From NCBI GenBank assembly GCA_017991615.1, contig JAGOQF010000001.1, positions 53,019 through 117,018 on the forward strand: a DNA stretch of 64,000 nt, read 5' to 3'. A model generated the notes under the pieces. That model was not told where the DNA came from. It did no database searches and saw nothing but the letters and a program-made list of their open reading frames with translations. The DNA is from Candidatus Shapirobacteria bacterium (GTDB lineage: Bacteria > Patescibacteriota > Microgenomatia > UBA12405). Below are positions 8,600 through 20,163 of the stretch, one piece after another. The stretch's first letter is position 1, and each line of letters begins with the position of its first letter. The position numbers and the translations under genes are program-made.

Positions 8600-9490
8600 T
8601 CAAAGCATTTGACTGAGAGCCTTGATCCGGTCTTCTATCGGGGGGTGGGTAGAAAACAAGCTGGCAATTTTATTGTTTTTAAAAGGATTACTAATATAAA
8701 GTGAGGTGGTGGCGGTGGAAGCGGTTTGCAGTTGATTATGGTCGGAGGAAATTTTAACGAGAGCATTGATAAGGCCTTTAGGTTGACGAGTAAGTTTAAC
8801 AGCGGAAGCGTCGGCAAGAAATTCGCGGCGGCGGGAAATGGCAAGTTGAATCAATTGAGCAATAATAGGAGCAAAGATAACTAGAATCATACCGATAATA
8901 CCCAGAAGACCATTTTCTTGTTTGTCGTCGTCGCGACGGCGGGAACCAGAAAAGAAAGAGTATCTAGTAGTAAAATCAATAAGGATAGATAAGCTGCCGA
9001 TTAAAACACTAACCAGGGTCATTAATAAGGTGTCATAATTTTTGATATGAGAGAGTTCGTGGGCAACAACACCTTCAAGTTCAGTGCGATTAAGTTCATT
9101 TAACAGACCGGTAGTGACACAAATAGAAGCATGTTGAGGGTTGCGACCGGTGGCAAAAGCATTTAGAGCGGGGCTGTCGATAACATAGGCTTTAGGAATT
9201 GGAGTCTGATTAACTTGGCTAAGATTTTCGACAACGGTATAAAGATCAAAATGGCTTTTTTTGTCGGCAGGTTTGGCGCCATTAAGGTTTAAAACCATCT
9301 TATCGCCGATAAAATAACTAGAAAGTGAAGAAATAATAGAGAAAATTAAGGCACCAATAATTAAACCGTTATCGAGATTAAAAGAAACAGTAATAAAATA
9401 AGCAGCAACTAAAATGAAGGCGACAAACAGAGTTAGAACAAACCCGGAACGGATCTTATTATTGTTTATTTGTTGATAAAAATTGGCCAT
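8600..9490 (-). CDS. htpX: M48 family zinc metalloprotease HtpX
   Basis: HELSH zinc motif in GVVAHELSHIKNYD, transmembrane segments, adjacent to lemA. Confidence 0.8.
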   Translation of the reverse strand: MANFYQQINNNKIRSGFVLTLFVAFILVAAYFITVSFNLDNGLIIGALIFSIISSLSSYFIGDKMVLNLNGAKPADKKSHFDLYTVVENLSQVNQTPIPKAYVIDSPALNAFATGRNPQHASICVTTGLLNELNRTELEGVVAHELSHIKNYDTLLMTLVSVLIGSLSILIDFTTRYSFFSGSRRRDDDKQENGLLGIIGMILVIFAPIIAQLIQLAISRRREFLADASAVKLTRQPKGLINALVKISSDHNQLQTASTATTSLYISNPFKNNKIASLFSTHPPIEDRIKALSQML

Positions 9491-10071
9491 TAGAGATTTA
9501 CTTTGGGATTTTTCATATCTTCTGAGGAGACTTCAAGTTGATTTTTGTCATCAGGAGTATTTAATCCCTTTTCTTCTTTGAAGCCGAATATTTGAGCCAC
9601 CCAGACACCAGGAATGGTAACAATGGCAGTATTGTAGTCGGCGCTGAGATCAATTAAGGTTCGACGAGCATACATAAGTTTATCGGCGGTGTCGCGGAGT
9701 TCGTCCATGAGATTATTAACCAGACCGGAGGTTTGAATTTGAGGGTTACTTTCAACGACAACTTTGAGTCCTGACAAAGCTTTGTTTAGGCTGGCTTGAG
9801 CTTTATCAATAAATTTTGGGTCGTTATTGTTAATGGCGGATTCAATTGATTTTCTAGCATCAGTTAATTGGTCAAAAATACCTTTTTCGTGTTTCATATA
9901 ACCTTTGACAGAGTCGACCAGATTGGGAATAAGGTTTGCTTGACGTTTGAGTTGATTGCCAATTTCCTGAACGGAGGCTTTGATGAGAACCTGGAGACGT
10001 TTGAGTTTGTTGTAAAAAGAAACTAAAACAAGAGTCAGGATAATAATGATGCCTAAGAGATAAAATATCAT
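9490..10071 (-). CDS. lemA: LemA family protein
   Basis: N-terminal TM helix plus QLKRQANLIPNLVDSVKGYMKHEK matches the LemA consensus. Confidence 0.8.
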   Translation of the reverse strand: MIFYLLGIIIILTLVLVSFYNKLKRLQVLIKASVQEIGNQLKRQANLIPNLVDSVKGYMKHEKGIFDQLTDARKSIESAINNNDPKFIDKAQASLNKALSGLKVVVESNPQIQTSGLVNNLMDELRDTADKLMYARRTLIDLSADYNTAIVTIPGVWVAQIFGFKEEKGLNTPDDKNQLEVSSEDMKNPKVNL

Positions 10072-11126
10072 TTTTTAGATTTAATCTTTAACAATTGATT
10101 ATAGCATTTTTGAGCGGTTTCGATTTCGGTAGTGCCGGTCCGATTTTGGGGTGGAATAAAACAAAGTTTGAGAAAATTATATAATTTTTCTTCGGAAGTA
10201 AATGTATTGATCTTACCGGTTTTAAGGTCTTTTATACCGTATTCTGAAATTGATAAACCTAAAGACAGGGCATATTTCCTCAAAAGAATATTATGTTGTT
10301 TGGAGCCGGTAAAATGTTGAACCAGAGAATAAAAGTTTTTTGACGGTTGGATCATAAGATCAACTCTGATATCAGGATAAATTCTGATGGAAGCTTTTTT
10401 GGGTCCGCGGTTGATGGTTTGAATATTTTTGGGGTAAGTCAAAAAATAATCCAAAATATCTTTGGTTTGGGTTGATTTGGCAGCTAAATCAATATCACCG
10501 ACGGTTTTGGTTTGACGGCGAAGGCTTCCCAGAGCTTCGATTTCAATGTGAGGAAATTTTTTATGTAAATAATTAATGATTTTATCAGCGGCAGTTTTGG
10601 CTTCTTGATAGCTTAGACGGCGGTGACGACCTAAAAAAGCCAAGGTGTTATCTAAAATCATTTTTTCTGATTTAATGCCAAACCTAGGTAAATTTCTGAT
10701 TTTGCCTTTTTGGGCATAAATTGTTAGTTGATTTAGAGCTTTGATGGGATCTTGGGAAAATTTAAGTTTTTTGGTTAGGGTGTGGGCGATTTTGGGACCG
10801 ATGCCATTGATTTTGGTAAAAGTAAAAACTATGGGAGAAATATTTTTGAAGGCACGGATAATGTGGGGATGAAGTTTACCAGTTTCAAACAAATAAACGA
10901 TTTTGGAAAAGATATTGGGACCAATACCAGGGATATCATCCAGTAGTTTGGGATCTTTTTGCCAGAGGGAGTGGACTGATTTTGGGTAGGTTAAAATAGT
11001 GTCGGCGGCATCTTGATAGGAGCGGATTCGAAAAAAGTTTTTATTTTTGATTTCGTAGGCGGTGGCAATATTTTGGAGAATTTCGGCGATTTCAGCGTTG
11101 GAATAAATCTTTTTGATTTTGGTCAT
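10068..11126 (-). CDS. Family X DNA polymerase (Pol beta-like core, no PHP domain)
   Basis: HhH motifs (IPGIGPNI, INGIGPKIA) and nucleotidyltransferase motif GSLRRQTKTVGDIDL. Confidence 0.7.
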   Translation of the reverse strand: MTKIKKIYSNAEIAEILQNIATAYEIKNKNFFRIRSYQDAADTILTYPKSVHSLWQKDPKLLDDIPGIGPNIFSKIVYLFETGKLHPHIIRAFKNISPIVFTFTKINGIGPKIAHTLTKKLKFSQDPIKALNQLTIYAQKGKIRNLPRFGIKSEKMILDNTLAFLGRHRRLSYQEAKTAADKIINYLHKKFPHIEIEALGSLRRQTKTVGDIDLAAKSTQTKDILDYFLTYPKNIQTINRGPKKASIRIYPDIRVDLMIQPSKNFYSLVQHFTGSKQHNILLRKYALSLGLSISEYGIKDLKTGKINTFTSEEKLYNFLKLCFIPPQNRTGTTEIETAQKCYNQLLKIKSKK

Positions 11127-11188: not shown

Positions 11189-11265
11189 GGGCTCGTGGTG
11201 CAGCGGTCTAGCACATCCGCCTGTCACGCGGAAGATCGTGGGTTCGAATCCCATCGGGCCCGCCA
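11189..11265 (+). tRNA. tRNA-Asp (anticodon GTC), CCA encoded
   Basis: Cloverleaf: acceptor gggctcg/cgggccc, anticodon stem tccgc/gcgga with loop ctGTCac, T-arm gtggg-ttcgaat-cccat. Confidence 0.85.
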
Positions 11266-12714
11266 TACTGAAAAATCGTCATTTTTCCCCATATTTTCGA
11301 GATAAGAAAATGGTTGTTTATACGTAACCTTTTGAAGTTTTTGATTTTCTATTGTAGCGTTCCAAAGTGTTGATTTTAGTAAATTGTCTTTTACTTCCCT
11401 ATCGCCAGAGTCATACATTTTTTTGAGGGAAATAGCGGTGTTTTTAAATTTTTTTAAAAGTTCCAAGATTGTATTAAGGTCATTAAATTTTGAGTGGTTT
11501 TTTTGATTTTCAAGTGCGGTAATTTCAGTTTCAATTTCTAGTTTTTTACTATCGTAAGTTTGGTTGTCAATTTGTTGGTTTAGTAATAAATCAAGTAGTC
11601 TATTTTTCTTTTTATTCAAATTATTAATTTGATTGTCGATGGTTTGATCAATGATGGTTTTATTTGAATTTCCTCTTTTTAGATCGTCTATGTATAGATT
11701 TAAAGATAATTCTGCTATTTCTGGGTCTATGGTGATTTTAGACATAATTTGGGACATGAGAATATCAACGGATTTTTCGGTTAGGTATTTTAGGTGTTGA
11801 TCACAATTGTGACGACTGTTAGTGCAGTAGTAGTAAACGTGTTTTCCCTTTTTTATGGTGGCAGTTAATTTACAGTTACATTTATTACAGGTCAGATAAT
11901 TGCTAAAGAGAAAATTATGTTTTTGTTTTTTTTGGTGATTGCTTCTATTTAACAGATATTGTGCTTTAGTAAATAGAGATCTGGAAATTAAAGGTTTAAA
12001 GCTACCTTGATATTCTTTACCCTTGCTGACTATTATGCCACAGTAAAGAGGATTGGTTAGAATTCGGTGAATTACTGACCTGTGGACCTTTTTGTTAGCT
12101 CTGTAGGTTCTAAAACCCTCTAAATAAAGTTTATTAGTGATTTGGCTAATAGAATAATCGCCGGTGGTGTAAAGTTTAAAGATTTCTTTAATGAAATGTG
12201 AATTATTTTTGTTGGGAATAATATTCCCGTTTTTGTTTTTGTAGCCAAGAGGAGCAGGGGCGCCGTATTCACCTTTTTTAAGTTTGGTTTCAATCCCCTC
12301 TTTAACTCTTTGTGAAAGATTTCGAGAATAATATGTTGCTGAAGCTAACTCAATTCCCATCATAAACATATCGTTGGGAGTATTGTAGGTTTTTGCAGGA
12401 GTTCTGATTTCTTTAATGATACCCAAATCATGTAATTTGCTTATCTGTCCTGCTTCTATCCAATTTCGACTAATTCGGTCTATATGACAGACAAGAAGAC
12501 CTTCGGCTTCTCCTTTTTGAAATTTGTCTAACATTTTTTCAAACTCAGGTCTATTACCGTCATCTTTAGCACTTTTAGTTTCAATAAAAGTTTCAATTAT
12601 TTCGAGATTATTGGTTTTAGAAAATTCGTTGAGAATTCTTTTTTGGGTTTCTATTGATTGAGTTTGATGTGACTCGTCCTCTGATGATTTTCGACAGTAG
12701 GAAAAATATTTCAT
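11224..12714 (-). CDS. Large serine recombinase (resolvase-domain N-terminus, recombinase domain, zinc-ribbon region). Its 3' end runs antisense into tRNA-Asp.
   Basis: N-terminus YCRKSSEDESHQ...SIETQ (catalytic Ser region), ~496 aa, Cys cluster (CNKCNCK...C). Confidence 0.75.
   Translation of the reverse strand: MKYFSYCRKSSEDESHQTQSIETQKRILNEFSKTNNLEIIETFIETKSAKDDGNRPEFEKMLDKFQKGEAEGLLVCHIDRISRNWIEAGQISKLHDLGIIKEIRTPAKTYNTPNDMFMMGIELASATYYSRNLSQRVKEGIETKLKKGEYGAPAPLGYKNKNGNIIPNKNNSHFIKEIFKLYTTGDYSISQITNKLYLEGFRTYRANKKVHRSVIHRILTNPLYCGIIVSKGKEYQGSFKPLISRSLFTKAQYLLNRSNHQKKQKHNFLFSNYLTCNKCNCKLTATIKKGKHVYYYCTNSRHNCDQHLKYLTEKSVDILMSQIMSKITIDPEIAELSLNLYIDDLKRGNSNKTIIDQTIDNQINNLNKKKNRLLDLLLNQQIDNQTYDSKKLEIETEITALENQKNHSKFNDLNTILELLKKFKNTAISLKKMYDSGDREVKDNLLKSTLWNATIENQKLQKVTYKQPFSYLENMGKNDDFSVWRARWDSNPRSSA
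11259..11591. repeat. Left 333-bp direct repeat (contains the 3' end of the recombinase gene)
   Basis: Identical to 15882-16213 at every position compared. Confidence 0.85.
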
Positions 12715-13578
12715 TTAGATTGCTTCTTTTATATAAAACCTAGTATATTTTACATTACCGTTGAATTGACTTGTATATTCACTTTTGAAGTAAGGGGTAA
12801 TCTTTTTTTGATTTAACCTTTCAATTATTTTTTCAGCGAAATCTCCATATTTAATTTTAGGTTTCTTAAGTCCTTTAGAAGTAAAAAAGGATCTTCTTCC
12901 ATAAAGTCTTGGATCATTGCTATTTTTAGTTAAATATTTAGTAAAATAGCTTCCCATTCCTTCGATATAATAGATATCTTTGAGTTTAATAAAACCATAT
13001 TTCCAAAGTTTTTTAACGATTTTTTTCTCAATAAAAGGAACGTTGATTATTAGATGGTAATGAACAGCTCCTCTTTTTTGAAATTCTGGAACAGCTAAGT
13101 ATTTTAAATTTAAATTTTTAAAATTATTTTTAAGACTTACCATAAAATTATGAAACTTGAGGTTACAAATTTTTAAATCAGTAATGTCGAAATTATTTTT
13201 ATTATCAAAAGTTAATGTGAGAAAAACAGAATCTTTATTGAAATTTGATTCAATCAATCTTCTTACTTGACCAATAACTCTAGTTTTAGTTCGTTCTCTG
13301 TATTCCTCTTTTCTGCTAATAAAAACATCAAAATCATATGGTCGTGGTTCTCTATTTTTCTTTACTTTTTCTTTTGGTGGTTTGTTTATAAGTAATGGTT
13401 TTTCATATTGGTAAATTTCGATATGATGACCACAAAGGATAACTTTAGTATTTACCGATGTAATTGGATCTGTTTTATAAATTACATCGAATATTTTTTT
13501 CTTATTTGTGACGGTATAATCAAGTCTAGGGTTGAGACTCTTTGGACTGGCGCCAGAAATTTTGTTTCGAATGCTCAT
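12715..13578 (-). CDS. Rolling-circle replication initiator (HUH endonuclease, pC194/pUB110-like Rep)
   Basis: Motif 1 FLTLTFD, motif 2 HYHLIINVP (HUH), motif 3 YFTKYLTK (catalytic Tyr). Start chosen at MSIRNK with AGGAGG RBS 5 nt upstream. Confidence 0.7.
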   Translation of the reverse strand: MSIRNKISGASPKSLNPRLDYTVTNKKKIFDVIYKTDPITSVNTKVILCGHHIEIYQYEKPLLINKPPKEKVKKNREPRPYDFDVFISRKEEYRERTKTRVIGQVRRLIESNFNKDSVFLTLTFDNKNNFDITDLKICNLKFHNFMVSLKNNFKNLNLKYLAVPEFQKRGAVHYHLIINVPFIEKKIVKKLWKYGFIKLKDIYYIEGMGSYFTKYLTKNSNDPRLYGRRSFFTSKGLKKPKIKYGDFAEKIIERLNQKKITPYFKSEYTSQFNGNVKYTRFYIKEAI

Positions 13579-13733
13579 TTGAACCTCCTTTTTTTGAATG
13601 AGGAGATACAAATGGCTTTACCTAAATAAATTAAGGATTGTCTACATTCTTCAAAATCTTTTTTCGACAGATTAATCTCTGGGAATCGATCTTTGAATAT
13701 TTGTCTTAATTTTTCTTCTGCCAATACTGACAT
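13575..13733 (-). CDS. 52-aa ORF (MSVLAEEKLRQIFKDRF...) translationally coupled to rep by an ATGA overlap
   Basis: Open frame by manual translation. Stop overlaps the rep start; too short for the ORF track. Function unknown. Confidence 0.3.
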   Translation of the reverse strand: MSVLAEEKLRQIFKDRFPEINLSKKDFEECRQSLIYLGKAICISSFKKRRFK

Positions 13734-13815
13734 GACGGAAGAATAAGAGCTTTACTAGGGGTAGCTTCAAACTGTTTTTTTATTCGTAATTTGGGGTATG
13801 AAAAGGGGGTAGTTT

Positions 13816-14646
13816 TTAGAGTGTTGTTAGAAGATAAACTTTTTTATTTTCATCGTGTTTTATCGTAAGTTTTATATTTTTGATTCTATTTTTTATTTGA
13901 CGAATATTGGTTTTAAAAAGATAATGATTCATTTCGAGTTTTTTTCTAATGTCTTTTGAACTAATACCTTGATTATTTTTAATCAGTAATTTAATTATTT
14001 TTAATCTTATACTGCCTTTTTTAAAGGTTATCTCTTTTTTATTAAACGATAAGATGTTGTTCTTTAAACGAATTCCATTTGTTTTGATTGGTGAATATTG
14101 TGATTTTTGTTTTTCTAAAGCCTTGTCTGTTTCTTCTAAAATAAACTCAATTCTAGTTGGTATCGGAAATTTTTTACTACCGTTTATAGCAAACAAAGTT
14201 TCTATATCTCCTTGAAAATTTAAGTAATTTGCTCGATTATTTACCCAATTACCAATCATAGTTTTTGGATCTCCTAATAAGTTAGGAATCTCATCGAAGG
14301 TTATATCTTTATCCATTATTTGACTTAGGAACTTACCTCTCTTAAAGCCAATTTCTTTTAATACAAATAGAAATAGAGGATAGGCTATGTTAATATCTCG
14401 ATTTGGTTTAATAAATATGTTTTGATTATCTTTTAGAACACAATCTAAAATTTCTATTGTTTTTGAAAGTATTAATTTGTATATAAATAAGTATTGTTGG
14501 TATGTAAATTTACATTTTGTATAGATTTTTGTATTGCAAAGTGTTGCCATTGACTTATCATTTTTAGGGATTGTTGTTAATAAGAGATCGACTGTTTTTG
14601 GGGTCCATCCAGTGGTTAATATTTGATTTATGTAGGATTTAAGCAT
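13816..14646 (-). CDS. Hypothetical protein (276 aa) with a basic, possibly DNA-binding C-terminus
   Basis: Long ORF within the element. No family recognised. Confidence 0.4.
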   Translation of the reverse strand: MLKSYINQILTTGWTPKTVDLLLTTIPKNDKSMATLCNTKIYTKCKFTYQQYLFIYKLILSKTIEILDCVLKDNQNIFIKPNRDINIAYPLFLFVLKEIGFKRGKFLSQIMDKDITFDEIPNLLGDPKTMIGNWVNNRANYLNFQGDIETLFAINGSKKFPIPTRIEFILEETDKALEKQKSQYSPIKTNGIRLKNNILSFNKKEITFKKGSIRLKIIKLLIKNNQGISSKDIRKKLEMNHYLFKTNIRQIKNRIKNIKLTIKHDENKKVYLLTTL

Positions 14647-14723
14647 GGATAAATTATATCAAAGGGTATCATTGTGCCCATAGACTCCATAAGCAATAAA
14701 GTGTTTCCGTTGGCTTTTATAAA

Positions 14724-14802
14724 TCACCCCAACCCAAAGTCGTATTATCTCACGCCGTCCGGCGCGGCCGGACGTGAGGACGACTTTTAAGGTTGGGGGT
14801 GA
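14724..14802. other. GC-rich 79-nt imperfect palindrome with nested core hairpin gtccggc-gcg-gccggac. Candidate replication origin / nick-site hairpin, or regulatory structure.
   Basis: Arms tcaccccaacccaaagtcg...ctcacg and cgtgag...cgacttttaaggttgggggtga are reverse-complementary with bulges. Local GC far above the flanks. Confidence 0.5.
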
Positions 14803-14815
14803 GTTTAGGGAGAAA

Positions 14816-15028
14816 TTAAGAAAACAAATCTCTGATGTTGGTTTTTAGGGCTTTAGCTAATTTATCAATTGTATTTAATGTTGGATTTCTTTTGCCGTTT
14901 TCAATAGCTACTACTGTTCTAGGATCTCTGTAAATTTTCTCTGCCAATTGTTCTTGTGATAATCCGTTTTCTTTTCTTAATTCTCTAATTCTTTCGCCAA
15001 ACTTCTGATAAATATTTGCCATTGACAC
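14816..15028 (-). CDS. XRE-family helix-turn-helix transcriptional regulator
   Basis: IRELRKENGLSQEQLAEKI...RTVVAIENGKRNPTLNTIDKLAKAL matches the Cro/C1 HTH. Confidence 0.8.
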   Translation of the reverse strand: MSMANIYQKFGERIRELRKENGLSQEQLAEKIYRDPRTVVAIENGKRNPTLNTIDKLAKALKTNIRDLFS

Positions 15029-15088
15029 AATCTGACATAAATGTCACTATTACAACAGGAAATATATTTCGTATTTTTATATTAAATT

Positions 15089-15829
15089 ATGGTATTTAAG
15101 GAAATTAATACTAAAAATATACCGCATATAAATTCCCTACTTGAAAGATTGAATGAGTTTAATATGTCTGAAGTTGAAAAGATTCAAAGACAGACATTTT
15201 TAAACTGGATAAAGAAACTAAAGTTATCTAAAAATTCAATTGTTTTATCTGTGTCTGTTGGGAATGGTATTTGGGATTATTTGGCTTTTTTACATAATAA
15301 AACTATTAGAAAAATAGTAGCGACAGATGTGATTGAAAATCCAGTTAGAAAAAATGATGTTGAAATTTTAAGAAGAATTGGAGATTGGAAATTTAAAAGA
15401 GTAATCCCAGAGGGAAAACTACCGTTTAAAAGTAATTCGTTTGATTTAATTTTTCATCAAGATGTGATTGAACATACTAAGAAACCTCATTTATTTTTAT
15501 CGGAGCAATTTAGGGTTTTAAAAAAGGATGGGTTTTTGATATTTGGAACTCCAAATTTATTAAGACCAGCTAATATAATTAAATTAATTTTTAATAAACT
15601 ACATTTTCCTGTCACTTTAGGATCTACGATTGAATTGGGAGATTGCACTCATATTCAAGAATTTAACTCCCAACAAATTGTAGTTATGTTGAAGGAAATA
15701 GGATTTAAAGATATTGAAGTTAAAAATTGTTTTTTTGGTATTCATTTATTGAATATAGTGTTTAAGGATTATTTGAGAAAAGATAATTGCAATTTATGTC
15801 ATTTTTTAATGTTTAAGTGTAAAAAATAA
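15089..15829 (+). CDS. Class I SAM-dependent methyltransferase
   Basis: Motif I-like VLSVSVGNGIWD, motif post-I VATDV, and FDLIF...LKKDGFLIFGTPN. Confidence 0.6.
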   Translation: MVFKEINTKNIPHINSLLERLNEFNMSEVEKIQRQTFLNWIKKLKLSKNSIVLSVSVGNGIWDYLAFLHNKTIRKIVATDVIENPVRKNDVEILRRIGDWKFKRVIPEGKLPFKSNSFDLIFHQDVIEHTKKPHLFLSEQFRVLKKDGFLIFGTPNLLRPANIIKLIFNKLHFPVTLGSTIELGDCTHIQEFNSQQIVVMLKEIGFKDIEVKNCFFGIHLLNIVFKDYLRKDNCNLCHFLMFKCKK

Positions 15830-15836
15830 TTTATAT

Positions 15837-16088
15837 CTATTTGTTTACAAATAAATCTATTCTAATTTTGTCCCATATTGTCCGCCATACTGAAAAATCG
15901 TCATTTTTCCCCATATTTTCGAGATAAGAAAATGGTTGTTTATACGTAACCTTTTGAAGTTTTTGATTTTCTATTGTAGCGTTCCAAAGTGTTGATTTTA
16001 GTAAATTGTCTTTTACTTCCCTATCGCCAGAGTCATACATTTTTTTGAGGGAAATAGCGGTGTTTTTAAATTTTTTTAAAAGTTCCAA
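15837..16088 (-). pseudogene. Duplicate of the 3' end of the serine recombinase gene (inside the right direct repeat)
   Basis: Translation ELLKKFKNTAISLKKMYDSGDREVKDN...DDFSVWR is identical to the C-terminus of 11224..12714. Confidence 0.75.
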
Positions 16089-16213
16089 GATTGTATTAAG
16101 GTCATTAAATTTTGAGTGGTTTTTTTGATTTTCAAGTGCGGTAATTTCAGTTTCAATTTCTAGTTTTTTACTATCGTAAGTTTGGTTGTCAATTTGTTGG
16201 TTTAGTAATAAAT
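15882..16213. repeat. Right 333-bp direct repeat
   Basis: Identical to 11259-11591. Confidence 0.85.
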
Positions 16214-18568: not shown

Positions 18569-19180
18569 TTATTCCAAAATGCCGTCAAGATTGACGTCAT
18601 AGATGATTTCTTCGGCAACCAGACGATAATTGAGGATTTCTTTTTTGTCAAACCAAATGGGAATTTCTTTGGCGGCTTCTTCAACAGAGCCAGAGGCGTG
18701 AATAATATTTCTGACGGCTCTGGCGTCAGCATCAGCAGAGGTGTAAGAATCGATAGTATAATCGCCGCGAATGGTGCCGGGAGCAGAAGTGAGAGGTTCA
18801 GTGGAACCGGTTATTTTGCGAACAACAGCTACAGCTCCCATCCCTTGCCAAATCATAGCAACTACTGGTCCACTACTCATAAAATCCATAAGTTTGCGAC
18901 GAATACCTTCAGCAAACTCAACTGGGTCTTTTCCAGGGAGGGGTAATCCTTTGGCTTTGTATGATTCAAAAGTTTTAGTGCCGCTTTTGATAGCCCAATC
19001 TGGATCGATAGAATAATGATCGAGGGTTAATTTTTTGGTAGGGATAAGCATTTTAAGGCCGACTAGTTTGAGACCGCATTGTTCGTAGCGGTGGATAACA
19101 TCCCCTATCAGGCCGCGTTGGACACCGTCAGGTTTAACAATAACTAAAGTTTGTTCTTGTTTGTTGTCAAAGTTTTTCAT
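18569..19180 (-). CDS. ndk: Nucleoside diphosphate kinase with an internal insertion and C-terminal extension
   Basis: VIVKPDGVQRGLIGDVI, SGPVVAMIWQG, Kpn-loop region with NIIHASGS (active-site His). Confidence 0.8.
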   Translation of the reverse strand: MKNFDNKQEQTLVIVKPDGVQRGLIGDVIHRYEQCGLKLVGLKMLIPTKKLTLDHYSIDPDWAIKSGTKTFESYKAKGLPLPGKDPVEFAEGIRRKLMDFMSSGPVVAMIWQGMGAVAVVRKITGSTEPLTSAPGTIRGDYTIDSYTSADADARAVRNIIHASGSVEEAAKEIPIWFDKKEILNYRLVAEEIIYDVNLDGILE

Positions 19181-19220
19181 ATTAGGGTATTTTCTATAAT
19201 ATTTGGTTAATAATCAAGTA

Positions 19221-19260
19221 ATAGATAGGTATTGAATATATTGATATTTATCTATATAAT
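19221..19260 (+). promoter_or_regulatory. Inverted repeat atagata-N21-tatctat overlapping a TATAAT -10 box upstream of the arsR-family gene. Candidate autoregulatory operator.
   Basis: Palindrome ends 7 nt before the ATG at 19267. Confidence 0.35.
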
Positions 19261-19266
19261 GTAGGT

Positions 19267-19572
19267 ATGGATAAAATATTTAAGGCATTGGCAGATAAAA
19301 ATAGACGAAAAATACTAACCTTATTAAAAGATAGAGAGATGTCGGTGAATGAATTATTGACTAGTTTTGAGATTAGGCAAGCGACATTATCAAATCATTT
19401 GTCTATTTTGAGAAAATCAGGATTAGTTTATTTTAAAGTAGTGGGAAAACAAAGAATTTATAGGATAAATTATGATCTGTTGGATGCATTTGCGGAGAAT
19501 ATGCGTAGATTTGTTGGAAGGTTGGACAAATCATTTATGGATGATATTGCAATTCGTTCCAAAATGGTGTAA
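19267..19572 (+). CDS. ArsR/SmtB-family transcriptional regulator
   Basis: LADKNRRKILTLL...SVNELLTSFEIRQATLSNHLSILRKSGLV matches the winged HTH. Confidence 0.8.
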   Translation: MDKIFKALADKNRRKILTLLKDREMSVNELLTSFEIRQATLSNHLSILRKSGLVYFKVVGKQRIYRINYDLLDAFAENMRRFVGRLDKSFMDDIAIRSKMV

Positions 19573-19611
19573 ATTAGGTTTAATTTATAATTAATTATTA
19601 TACTAGTTTTT

Positions 19612-20163
19612 ATGAAATTTTCTGATATCCGAAAAAAATATTTTAAGTCAACTGAGGAAATTGTGAGTATGTTTTTGGGTTTGATAATTGTGGTGGTGGT
19701 TGGAGGATTAATTTTTAGTTATTTTCAAAAAAATAAAGGGAATATTAATATTCCGGGGTCAAGTGATATTAGTTTAAGTGATAAAAGTGACGGTGATAGA
19801 TCTGATTTTTATGAGGTGGAATTGGGAGATAGTTTGTGGAAAATAGCCGAAAAAAAATATAATAACGGTTATGCTTGGACAGAAATTGCTAAAGCTAATA
19901 ATATAAAAAATCCATCAGTGATTGAGGTGGGGCAGAAGATTGTTTTGCCAGAAGTGGAGGTGACTGAGAAAATTGAGGTAGATAAAATTTTGGTGGGTAG
20001 TGAATATAAAGTGGTTAGAGGAGATAGTTTGTGGAAAATAGCGGTGAGGGCTTATGGTGATGGTTATCAGTGGGTAAAAATTTGGGAAGAGAATAAATCA
20101 AAGATTTATAATCCCAATGGTTTGGAAATTGGGATGATGATCAGTATTCCTCAGATAAACTAA
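19612..20163 (+). CDS. Membrane-anchored protein with two LysM domains
   Basis: Two copies of Y.V..GDSLWKIA...Y.....W..I...N.I.NP..I..G..I.IP. Confidence 0.75.
   Translation: MKFSDIRKKYFKSTEEIVSMFLGLIIVVVVGGLIFSYFQKNKGNINIPGSSDISLSDKSDGDRSDFYEVELGDSLWKIAEKKYNNGYAWTEIAKANNIKNPSVIEVGQKIVLPEVEVTEKIEVDKILVGSEYKVVRGDSLWKIAVRAYGDGYQWVKIWEENKSKIYNPNGLEIGMMISIPQIN

Follow-up and report, generated by a model that had tools for sequence, protein, structure and literature searches.

Why should a small mobile element in the genome of an uncultivated patescibacterium keep a 79-nt, GC-rich hairpin between two of its genes? The question is raised by a 64,000-nucleotide stretch of a Candidatus Shapirobacteria genome (Patescibacteriota, Microgenomatia; contig JAGOQF010000001.1, positions 53,019 to 117,018), here called the window, to which all coordinates below refer. 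The element, of about 4.6 kb, is integrated at a tRNA-Asp gene and carries a serine recombinase, a replication initiator (Rep) of the HUH type, a winged helix-turn-helix (wHTH) protein, an XRE-family regulator and a methyltransferase; a Rep identical to its own is on record from Candidatus Shapirobacteria. A first-pass annotation, made from the letters of the window, had taken the hairpin for this Rep's double-strand origin (dso) or else its single-strand origin (sso). Comparison with related elements leads us to hold, with moderate confidence, that the hairpin is probably the sso of a small integrative rolling-circle replicon, and an sso of a new type; the candidate dso lies elsewhere, within the rep gene.

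The hairpin and its conservation

The hairpin (14724-14802, folding on the minus strand, which is the Rep-sense strand) is an imperfect palindrome whose core, read directly from the sequence, is GTCCGGC-GCG-GCCGGAC, exactly as it had been described. Its GC content is 0.53 in a surrounding kilobase of 0.31, bearing out the contrast with AT-rich DNA remarked on earlier. As single-stranded DNA (ssDNA), the plus strand reaches -27.6 kcal/mol, compared with -12.1 +/- 2.3 kcal/mol in dinucleotide shuffles (z -6.9; none of 200 as stable), and the minus strand as RNA gives -45.5 kcal/mol (z -6.6). In a fold scan of the whole element, it is the single large hairpin and, at -27 kcal/mol, the strongest local structure by 14 kcal/mol, the runner-up being the tRNA at -13 kcal/mol. 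It is flanked by two minus-strand genes, as the first-pass annotation had said: an XRE-family helix-turn-helix (HTH) regulator gene (14816-15028), with its stop codon 13 nt from the hairpin on the 5' side, and a gene for a 276-aa protein (13816-14646). The statement that it is not an intrinsic terminator also stands, since the hairpin has no U-tract and no terminator-like site was found on either strand in 13400-15200; the tails 3' of the hairpin are A-rich in many relatives (for example GAAAUAUAAU). Searches of Rfam 15 brought only tRNAs to the gathering threshold, and at a relaxed threshold, the best sub-threshold match was CC0196, with 13 bits where 35 are needed (E 1.5). A 6S-RNA-like open-promoter mimic was considered and dropped, as Rfam gave it no support.

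Relatives of the element were defined as contigs encoding Reps 53-76% identical to that of the window. Most were obtained by exact-protein look-ups; a metagenome scan gave only four loci, and a Rep-based locus search of the genome_contigs and viral_contigs collections found no relative. Roughly 950 other Reps with PF23343 are more distantly related. Thirteen distinct metagenomic elements cover the hairpin region, and the remaining contigs, which give no match, end before it. With a covariance model, R1, built from six hairpins, all 13 elements yield a single strong match apiece (37-107 bits), always on the Rep-sense strand, with the window's own match at 14703-14805 (106 bits). None of the covering elements keeps Rep and loses the palindrome, in agreement with the earlier idea that the two belong together.

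The pairing itself is what has been kept. Across the 13 elements, standard pairs make up 86.8% of pair cells, compared with 31-43% when the partners are slid by 1-3 columns, and both sides have changed in 10 of 28 pairs (for example CUCACG/CGUGAG to CUCAUG/CAUGAG). For covariation, the alignment scores 0.204 and the shuffles 0.117 on average, with none of 500 shuffles scoring as high. The underlying alignment was fitted to the covariance model and is therefore biased towards its structure, a bias offset by the slid-partner control and by independent single-sequence folds, which give the same architecture in every element. A MAFFT alignment (A2) had been discarded because the distant group was misaligned and RNAalifold support was weak, and the model-based alignment was used instead. 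The terminal loops vary freely (CGC, AAC, GAA, ATA, AAA, TTT). The hairpin structure is under selection and goes beyond a palindrome that arose by chance. When genome_contigs and viral_contigs were scanned with the hairpin written as a degenerate DNA pattern, seven matches appeared (Clostridia, a cyanobacterium and viral contigs), none of which fits the covariance model, and these were set aside as chance.

The gene upstream of the hairpin differs from element to element, being an HTH gene, a 119-aa gene paired with a proteasome-family gene, a methyltransferase-like gene or a divergent gene, and the 276-aa gene downstream is absent from some elements with the hairpin (L008, L009/L016 and L019). 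Because it is kept despite this loss and despite the differing upstream cargo, the hairpin belongs to the Rep/recombinase core and not to a neighbouring gene. Homology between elements starts at its 5' base. With DNA parameters, the hairpin is as stable or more so on the Rep-sense strand in 13 of 13 elements, and with RNA parameters, this strand is favoured by 4-14 kcal/mol in 9 of 13; in the minimum-energy structures, G.T pairs number 21 on the sense strand and 7 on the antisense strand.

Beside the hairpin stands a further conserved motif, AGCC-N3-GGAA (14705-14715, minus strand), about 9 nt 3' of it in the window and about 9-24 nt 3' of it in 10 of the 13 elements (one with AGAC for AGCC). 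It is missing from L018, L020 and L030, of which L020 and L018 carry ATCACCGA at that place, and no explanation so far covers it.

A candidate nick site inside rep

The rep gene (12715-13578, minus strand, 287 aa) had been annotated as encoding a rolling-circle initiator, and its product carries the marks of one: a match to PF23343 (6e-20), matches to PHROG families of rolling-circle replication initiators, the HUH motif in the form HYH and a YxxxY motif (YFTKY), with H173-Y-H175 and Y211/Y215 invariant among relatives. Its characterised relatives occur in small rolling-circle plasmids of Bacillales and Fusobacterium and in Microviridae-like genomes. The ATG at 13578 has a strong AAGGAGG Shine-Dalgarno sequence.

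A k-mer screen for sequence that the elements have in common apart from the hairpin brought up CTAGACTTGAT, which lies 49 nt into rep, as part of the block CTAGACTTGAT(A/T)ATACCGTYACA. In the window, the candidate nick region reads CTAGACTTG^ATTATACCGTCACA (13507-13529, minus strand; codons 17-24, at the 5' end of rep), with CTTGAT at 13524-13519 and the nick, marked by the caret, predicted between G13521 and A13520. Its core, CTTG^ATA, is a nick sequence of the pC194/phiX174 type. The block is identical in 12 of 13 elements, the exception being L009 with CTTGTT, and it is the most conserved 18-nt stretch of the rep alignment (0.98; median 0.79). At R18, L19, D20, T22 and T24, a single codon is used in all 13 elements, and four of these five positions are fourfold or sixfold degenerate. 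In every relative, a GC-rich hairpin (-10 to -19.5 kcal/mol) lies immediately 5' of the block; its sequence changes by lineage without loss of pairing, and the variable N-terminus of Rep is encoded there. Plasmids pHT926 (Brevibacillus) and pGTG5 (Geobacillus), whose Reps are 31-32% identical to that of the window over 84% of its length, have ACTTGATTATAG(C/T)GA directly upstream of rep, share ACTTGATTATA(G/C)(C/T)G with the nick region described here and also possess long GC-rich hairpins 5' of the nick. They differ in that here the nick region falls within the rep coding sequence, its preceding hairpin doubling as the code for the Rep N-terminus, and in that the large hairpin has no homologue there by covariance model R1. 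The pT181 family provides an earlier case of a dso located within rep (PMC5703833). From these sequence features, we conclude that the putative dso is at 13529-13507 on the minus strand; as the Rep-sense strand is the one that carries the nick motif, it would be the strand displaced.

It is thus very improbable that the large hairpin is itself the dso, extruded as a cruciform and nicked by Rep: many HUH initiators do nick in or beside hairpins (PMC5714925), and this one is conserved together with Rep, but the nick motif CTAGACTTGAT(A/T)ATACCGT sits inside rep, invariant at degenerate codon positions, with a covarying hairpin of its own and a counterpart directly upstream of rep in pHT926 and pGTG5, while the large hairpin lies at a distance from rep that varies from 0.5 to 2.1 kb and, in several relatives, has A.C mismatches on the other strand that would disfavour cruciform extrusion. 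The canonical nick motif for which the first-pass annotation had suggested searching the hairpin loop is absent from the hairpin (no CTTGAT in 14700-14810) and sits elsewhere in the element, so that the dso half of the original proposal falls by the criterion that the annotation itself had set.

In the window alone, the hairpin preceding the nick is degraded, its remnant being the short, weak palindrome CTGGCGCCAG (13546-13555, minus strand); it is strong in relatives such as L018, L020 and L001. The window copy may initiate replication poorly or may be decaying. Another sequence, TTTGATATAAT (about 14665-14653), before the ATG of the 276-aa gene, was considered as a phiX/pC194 nick site and rejected, as in the distant relatives L018 and L020 its place is taken by CGGTATAAT. 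Because its conserved part is a TATAAT 6-8 nt before a leaderless ATG, this site is a promoter and not a nick site. In the window, it forms part of a promoter-like TGGGCA-16-TATAAT, with TG (14653-14680, minus strand). This ends 6 nt short of the start codon (ATG) of the 276-aa gene, the mRNA of which is for this reason probably leaderless.

The single-strand-origin reading and its rivals

Single-strand origins are non-coding and highly structured, work in one orientation only on the displaced strand and are flexible in their position relative to rep (PMC5703833; PMC4595007). The large hairpin is carried by a replicon with an HUH initiator, lies in a non-coding region with selected intrastrand pairing and, as far as conservation tells, has a fixed orientation on the strand predicted to be displaced, all 13 copies being on the CTTG^AT strand. 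In all 12 elements measured, it lies on the 5' side of the nick at a distance of 0.5-2.1 kb (1.2 kb in the window), and would therefore be displaced late. No primase-like protein or domain was found among the proteins of the element with Pfam, PHROG or the structure of the 276-aa protein. Our reading of the hairpin as an sso follows from these traits, namely that it is non-coding, folded, fixed in orientation, on the displaced strand, variable in position and the sole large hairpin of an element that encodes no primase. The sso half of the original proposal survives in the sense that conservation, orientation, folding on the displaced strand, position and the lack of a second large hairpin are all consistent with it.

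In the scheme that we propose, the serine recombinase would excise the element, and Rep would nick the Rep-sense strand at CTAGACTTG^AT within its own gene. Leading-strand synthesis would then displace this strand; lying 1.2 kb 5' of the nick, the 79-nt hairpin would be one of the last stretches to be released as ssDNA. The hairpin would fold into a mostly duplex rod, on which host enzymes would prime the complementary strand. Priming by host enzymes is established for other ssos (PMC5703833; PMC4595007; PMC5714925), and at ssoA and ssoU, the enzyme is the host RNA polymerase (PMC5703833; PMC4595007). For the present element, we infer excision followed by rolling-circle replication, sso function and priming by RNA polymerase alike.

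A close functional comparison is with ssoA, ssoU, ssoT, ssoW as well as ssoL, the RNA-polymerase-dependent origins of Gram-positive rolling-circle plasmids, which are likewise non-coding, folded and located on the displaced strand of a replicon with an HUH Rep, with a fixed orientation, a variable distance 5' of the nick and no element-encoded primase (PMC5703833). The hairpin differs from them in showing no sequence likeness, in being one 79-nt rod rather than a multi-stem structure of about 160 nt, and in belonging to an integrative replicon of Patescibacteria, also known as the Candidate Phyla Radiation (CPR). An RSB sequence is common to the ssoA, ssoU, ssoT and ssoW types (PMC5703833). 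Judged by its sequence features, the hairpin behaves like an sso but is outside the described ssoA/U/T/W/L sequence types.

How RNA polymerase might recognise such a rod is suggested by TGAGATAAT (14744-14752, minus strand), in the 3' arm. It is an instance of the pattern TG-N-NANAAT, which is invariant across the aligned elements. The TG lies in the stem, and its pairs are constant while neighbouring pairs covary; the ANAAT stretch is unpaired in every element, in a one-sided internal loop (ATAAT in a 5x1 loop in the window). The pattern resembles an extended -10 element in which bases -11 to -7 are already unpaired, that is, pre-melted, and the conserved TATAAT 6-8 nt before leaderless ATGs indicates that the host uses -10 elements of the TATAAT type. 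In the minus origin of the filamentous phages f1/M13 and in Frpo/ssi of conjugative plasmids, a hairpin of ssDNA mimics a promoter for the sigma-70 holoenzyme (PMC7948647; PMC11541004): the M13 minus origin provides a promoter-like template for which sigma region 4 is dispensable (PMC7948647), and Frpo is a hairpin ssDNA promoter (PMC11541004). The hairpin here would offer RNA polymerase a duplex TG and an unpaired ANAAT. Whereas Frpo has both -35 and -10 elements in a longer stem, the -10-like element here is separated from the apex by only about 14 nt of duplex, into which a -35 element cannot fit. Such an arrangement would be in keeping with the minus origin of M13 and with Frpo-like promoters formed by ssDNA hairpins.

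More speculatively, a sigma-70-type host RNA polymerase would bind the rod without a -35 element, using the duplex TG and the unpaired A-N-A-A-T, and would copy a short G-rich primer from the C-rich 5' arm, exiting at the base of the hairpin. The predicted 5' end of this primer is about 6-9 nt 3' of TGAGATAAT, around 14737-14735, into GGGUUGGGG, and transcription out of the hairpin base is the direction required to prime the complementary strand. That the hairpin is a minimal ssDNA promoter in this sense (an 80-nt rod with a duplex TG, a pre-flipped -10 element with A-11...T-7 in a permanent bubble and no -35 element) is a tentative proposal that we consider possible rather than probable. The lack of room for a -35 element counts against it, as does the fact that the -10 reading was made post hoc: by a rough estimate, chance would let a conserved 9-mer somewhere in a hairpin of 80 nt fit TGNNANAAT in a few percent of cases, and more often in AT-rich loops.

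Several observations also weigh against the sso reading as a whole. The hairpin resembles no known sso type in sequence, covariance model R1 has no match in pGTG5 or pHT926, and direct reading of the hairpin reveals no CS-6-like TAGCG, the consensus of the CS-6 terminal loop of ssoA being TAGCG(T/A). Its 79 nt are about half the length of ssoA (about 160 nt; PMC5703833). The strand asymmetry in RNA folding energy is absent in 4 of 13 elements, including that of the window (-45.1 vs -45.8 kcal/mol). Rolling-circle replication of the family is itself deduced from gene content, and a terminal-overlap test for circular, excised contigs found none. Finally, 7 of 13 elements have a gene on the same strand that stops 0-40 nt short of the hairpin, which would suit an RNA 3'-end structure as well.

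This last point leads to the likeliest of the alternatives, that the hairpin acts in cis as RNA, within the Rep-sense transcript. There it could stabilise the 3' end, serve as a processing site or terminate the upstream HTH, proteasome-like or methyltransferase gene independently of a U-tract, or else it could belong to the 5' leader of the downstream gene. Besides the nearby stops, one of which (in L004) has its stop codon within the 5' arm, the great stability of the fold as RNA and the G.U-type pairs that favour the transcribed strand speak for it. The absence of a U-tract and of any terminator-like call, the A-rich tails of many relatives and the lack of an Rfam family do not. Moreover, the upstream gene is divergent in L001, L009/L016, L018, where it begins 23 nt from the hairpin, and L019; this leaves hardly any space for a promoter from which the hairpin could be transcribed into RNA, and a transcript from upstream would miss it. 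The downstream gene has its own promoter by its leaderless ATG, and some of the elements with the hairpin do not have this gene. We consider an RNA role unlikely.

A role in duplex DNA appears improbable. The hairpin would then be a long palindromic site for a dimeric protein (XRE, wHTH, Rep or recombinase), a plain extended -10 promoter, TGAGATAAT, directed towards the 276-aa gene and rep, or both. TG-N-NANAAT would indeed be a fair sigma-70 extended -10 element in double-stranded DNA, the CACCCC/GGGGTG base of the stem resembles the (C/A)TACCCC repeats of the rep promoter region, and the position is a regulatory one, between genes and beside those of DNA-binding proteins. However, the arms are asymmetric, and conserved one-sided bulges, the 5x1 internal loop and G.T pairs on one strand are hard to reconcile with symmetric half-sites; compensatory changes keep the pairing and not the sequence; and operators are usually far shorter than 79 bp. 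The 276-aa gene already has another promoter, in a better position, and the hairpin remains where that gene or a co-oriented HTH gene is absent.

Quite improbable, in our view, is another single-strand-specific signal on the displaced strand, such as an f1-like packaging or transfer signal or a site for the machinery of a helper element. It would account for the same strand-specific, orientation-fixed and conserved features as an sso; the packaging hairpin of f1, of about 78 nt, is of similar size, and relatives of the Rep occur in Microviridae-like genomes. Yet neither the element nor its relatives show capsid, morphogenesis, relaxase or coupling-protein genes, a search of the viral contig collection found no relative, and a rolling-circle replicon needs an sso, for which the element holds no other candidate.

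The element, its cargo and its integration site

The element is bounded by direct repeats of 300 nt, 99% identical, at 11249-11548 (left) and 15871-16170 (right), spaced by 4622 nt. Its integration site is a predicted tRNA-Asp (GTC) gene (11189-11265, plus strand), the 3' end of which overlaps the 3' end of the gene for the large serine recombinase (11224-12714, minus strand, 496 aa; PF00239, PF07508, PF13408). The repeat consists of the last ~17 nt of tRNA-Asp and ~283 nt of the recombinase 3' end, far more than crossover by a serine recombinase needs. On the left, the full recombinase gene overlaps the tRNA gene; on the right is a fragment encoding 83 aa of the C-terminus (open reading frame 15837-16088), and the two C-termini have different tails (…VWRTIWDKIRIDLFVNK versus …VWRARWDSNPRSSA). 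The repeat could be the leftover of an earlier copy, or the recombinase C-terminus could be altered by excision. Contigs L004, L005, L011, L012 and L028 end within the 3' end of the recombinase gene, as would be expected if this stretch occurs in two contexts (as a repeat, or integrated and excised) and so breaks assemblies.

The integrative rolling-circle elements of actinomycetes (AICEs) of the pSAM2 type also insert into a tRNA gene at its 3' end and combine a site-specific recombinase with a rolling-circle Rep. pSAM2 is an element of actinomycetes with a tyrosine recombinase and an FtsK-like transfer gene; the present element, by contrast, has a serine recombinase, no FtsK-like transfer gene, a length of only 4.6 kb and a CPR host. 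The match of its Rep to PF20199 (RepSA) is weak (27.8 bits, below the cut-off of 34).

The chromosomal surroundings recur in part. In L014 and L016, the element occupies the same chromosomal site as in the window, beside genes for PolX, LemA, an M48 peptidase and DNA polymerase III alpha (compare window 8600-11126). In L020, the LemA-M48 run also follows, with an HTH/HAD hydrolase gene in place of PolX. The element of L018 adjoins NDK-ArsR-LysM, genes that in the window lie 3 kb to the other side (18569-20163).

A 52-aa open reading frame (13575-13733, minus strand) overlaps the start of rep, and a small open reading frame is found at the same place in L006, L014, L018 and L029. The rep-operon promoter region (13734-13815, minus strand) contains TTGAAG (13770-13765), a 17-nt spacer and CTTATT (13747-13742), 8 nt before an ATG. 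Three direct (C/A)TACCCC repeats, the ones that resemble the hairpin base, overlap it (13812-13805, 13799-13793 and 13764-13758). The closeness of both internal promoters to their ATG (TATAAT-N6-ATG and CTTATT-N8-ATG) points to mRNAs with no leader or almost none. The 276-aa protein (13816-14646, minus strand) has no Pfam or PHROG match. Its AlphaFold2 model has a pLDDT of 70, with a C-terminal domain above 85 and an N-terminal half of low confidence; the C-terminal domain resembles an ScpB-like wHTH (67 residues, root-mean-square deviation 1.4). The protein was considered as a primase, an idea dropped because the modelled structure shows only a generic C-terminal winged helix.

Two further non-coding features were noted. 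Upstream of the promoter of the 276-aa gene, at about 14686-14670 (minus strand), lies the block rTGGAGTyyyTGGnGmc, with two TGG(A/T)G half-repeats, which also occurs in relatives that lack the 276-aa gene (L008, L009 and L019) and may be an operator. In these same relatives, another conserved palindrome, AATTCT(A/G)C-TTTT-GTAGAATT, is found between the large hairpin and rep (L008 3050-3250, L009 2125-2330, L019 5590-5640).

The variable cargo part of the window element holds only the HTH gene and a gene for an S-adenosylmethionine-dependent methyltransferase (15089-15829, plus strand); the proteasome pair of some relatives is missing exactly between the HTH gene and the hairpin. Defence-like genes adjoin the Rep core in several relatives (L004 2423-3489, L030 2653-3728, L011 43-1782, L028 2909-3694, L019 9857-10426, L029 875-1504). 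Upstream of the hairpin, relatives carry the 119-aa gene with a Proteasome-family (PF00227) gene, TIR with DUF2726, SMODS or NYN, and L019 has an SLFN_AlbA_2 gene beyond the recombinase.

The replication of mobile elements in CPR/Patescibacteria is barely known, and their hosts cannot be grown alone. The family described here appears to be a replicon that is complete in spite of its very small size, about 4.6 kb, with a serine recombinase and a tRNA-Asp attachment site, a phiX174-like Rep, an intragenic nick site, one candidate lagging-strand origin and a variable cargo slot that in relatives holds defence-like genes. Even if the sso reading is wrong, the hairpin is still a strongly covarying 80-nt structure tightly linked to a rolling-circle Rep. 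If that reading is right, the hairpin would offer a small natural system in which to study how RNA polymerase recognises folded ssDNA in the manner of a promoter. Should the minimal-promoter proposal also hold, it would be the smallest RNA-polymerase-dependent lagging-strand origin described, and sso and intragenic dso, the latter with a hairpin that encodes the Rep N-terminus, would be the first origin pair defined for a mobile element of uncultivated CPR/Patescibacteria. With these assignments true, the replicon could seed genetic tools for CPR/Patescibacteria.

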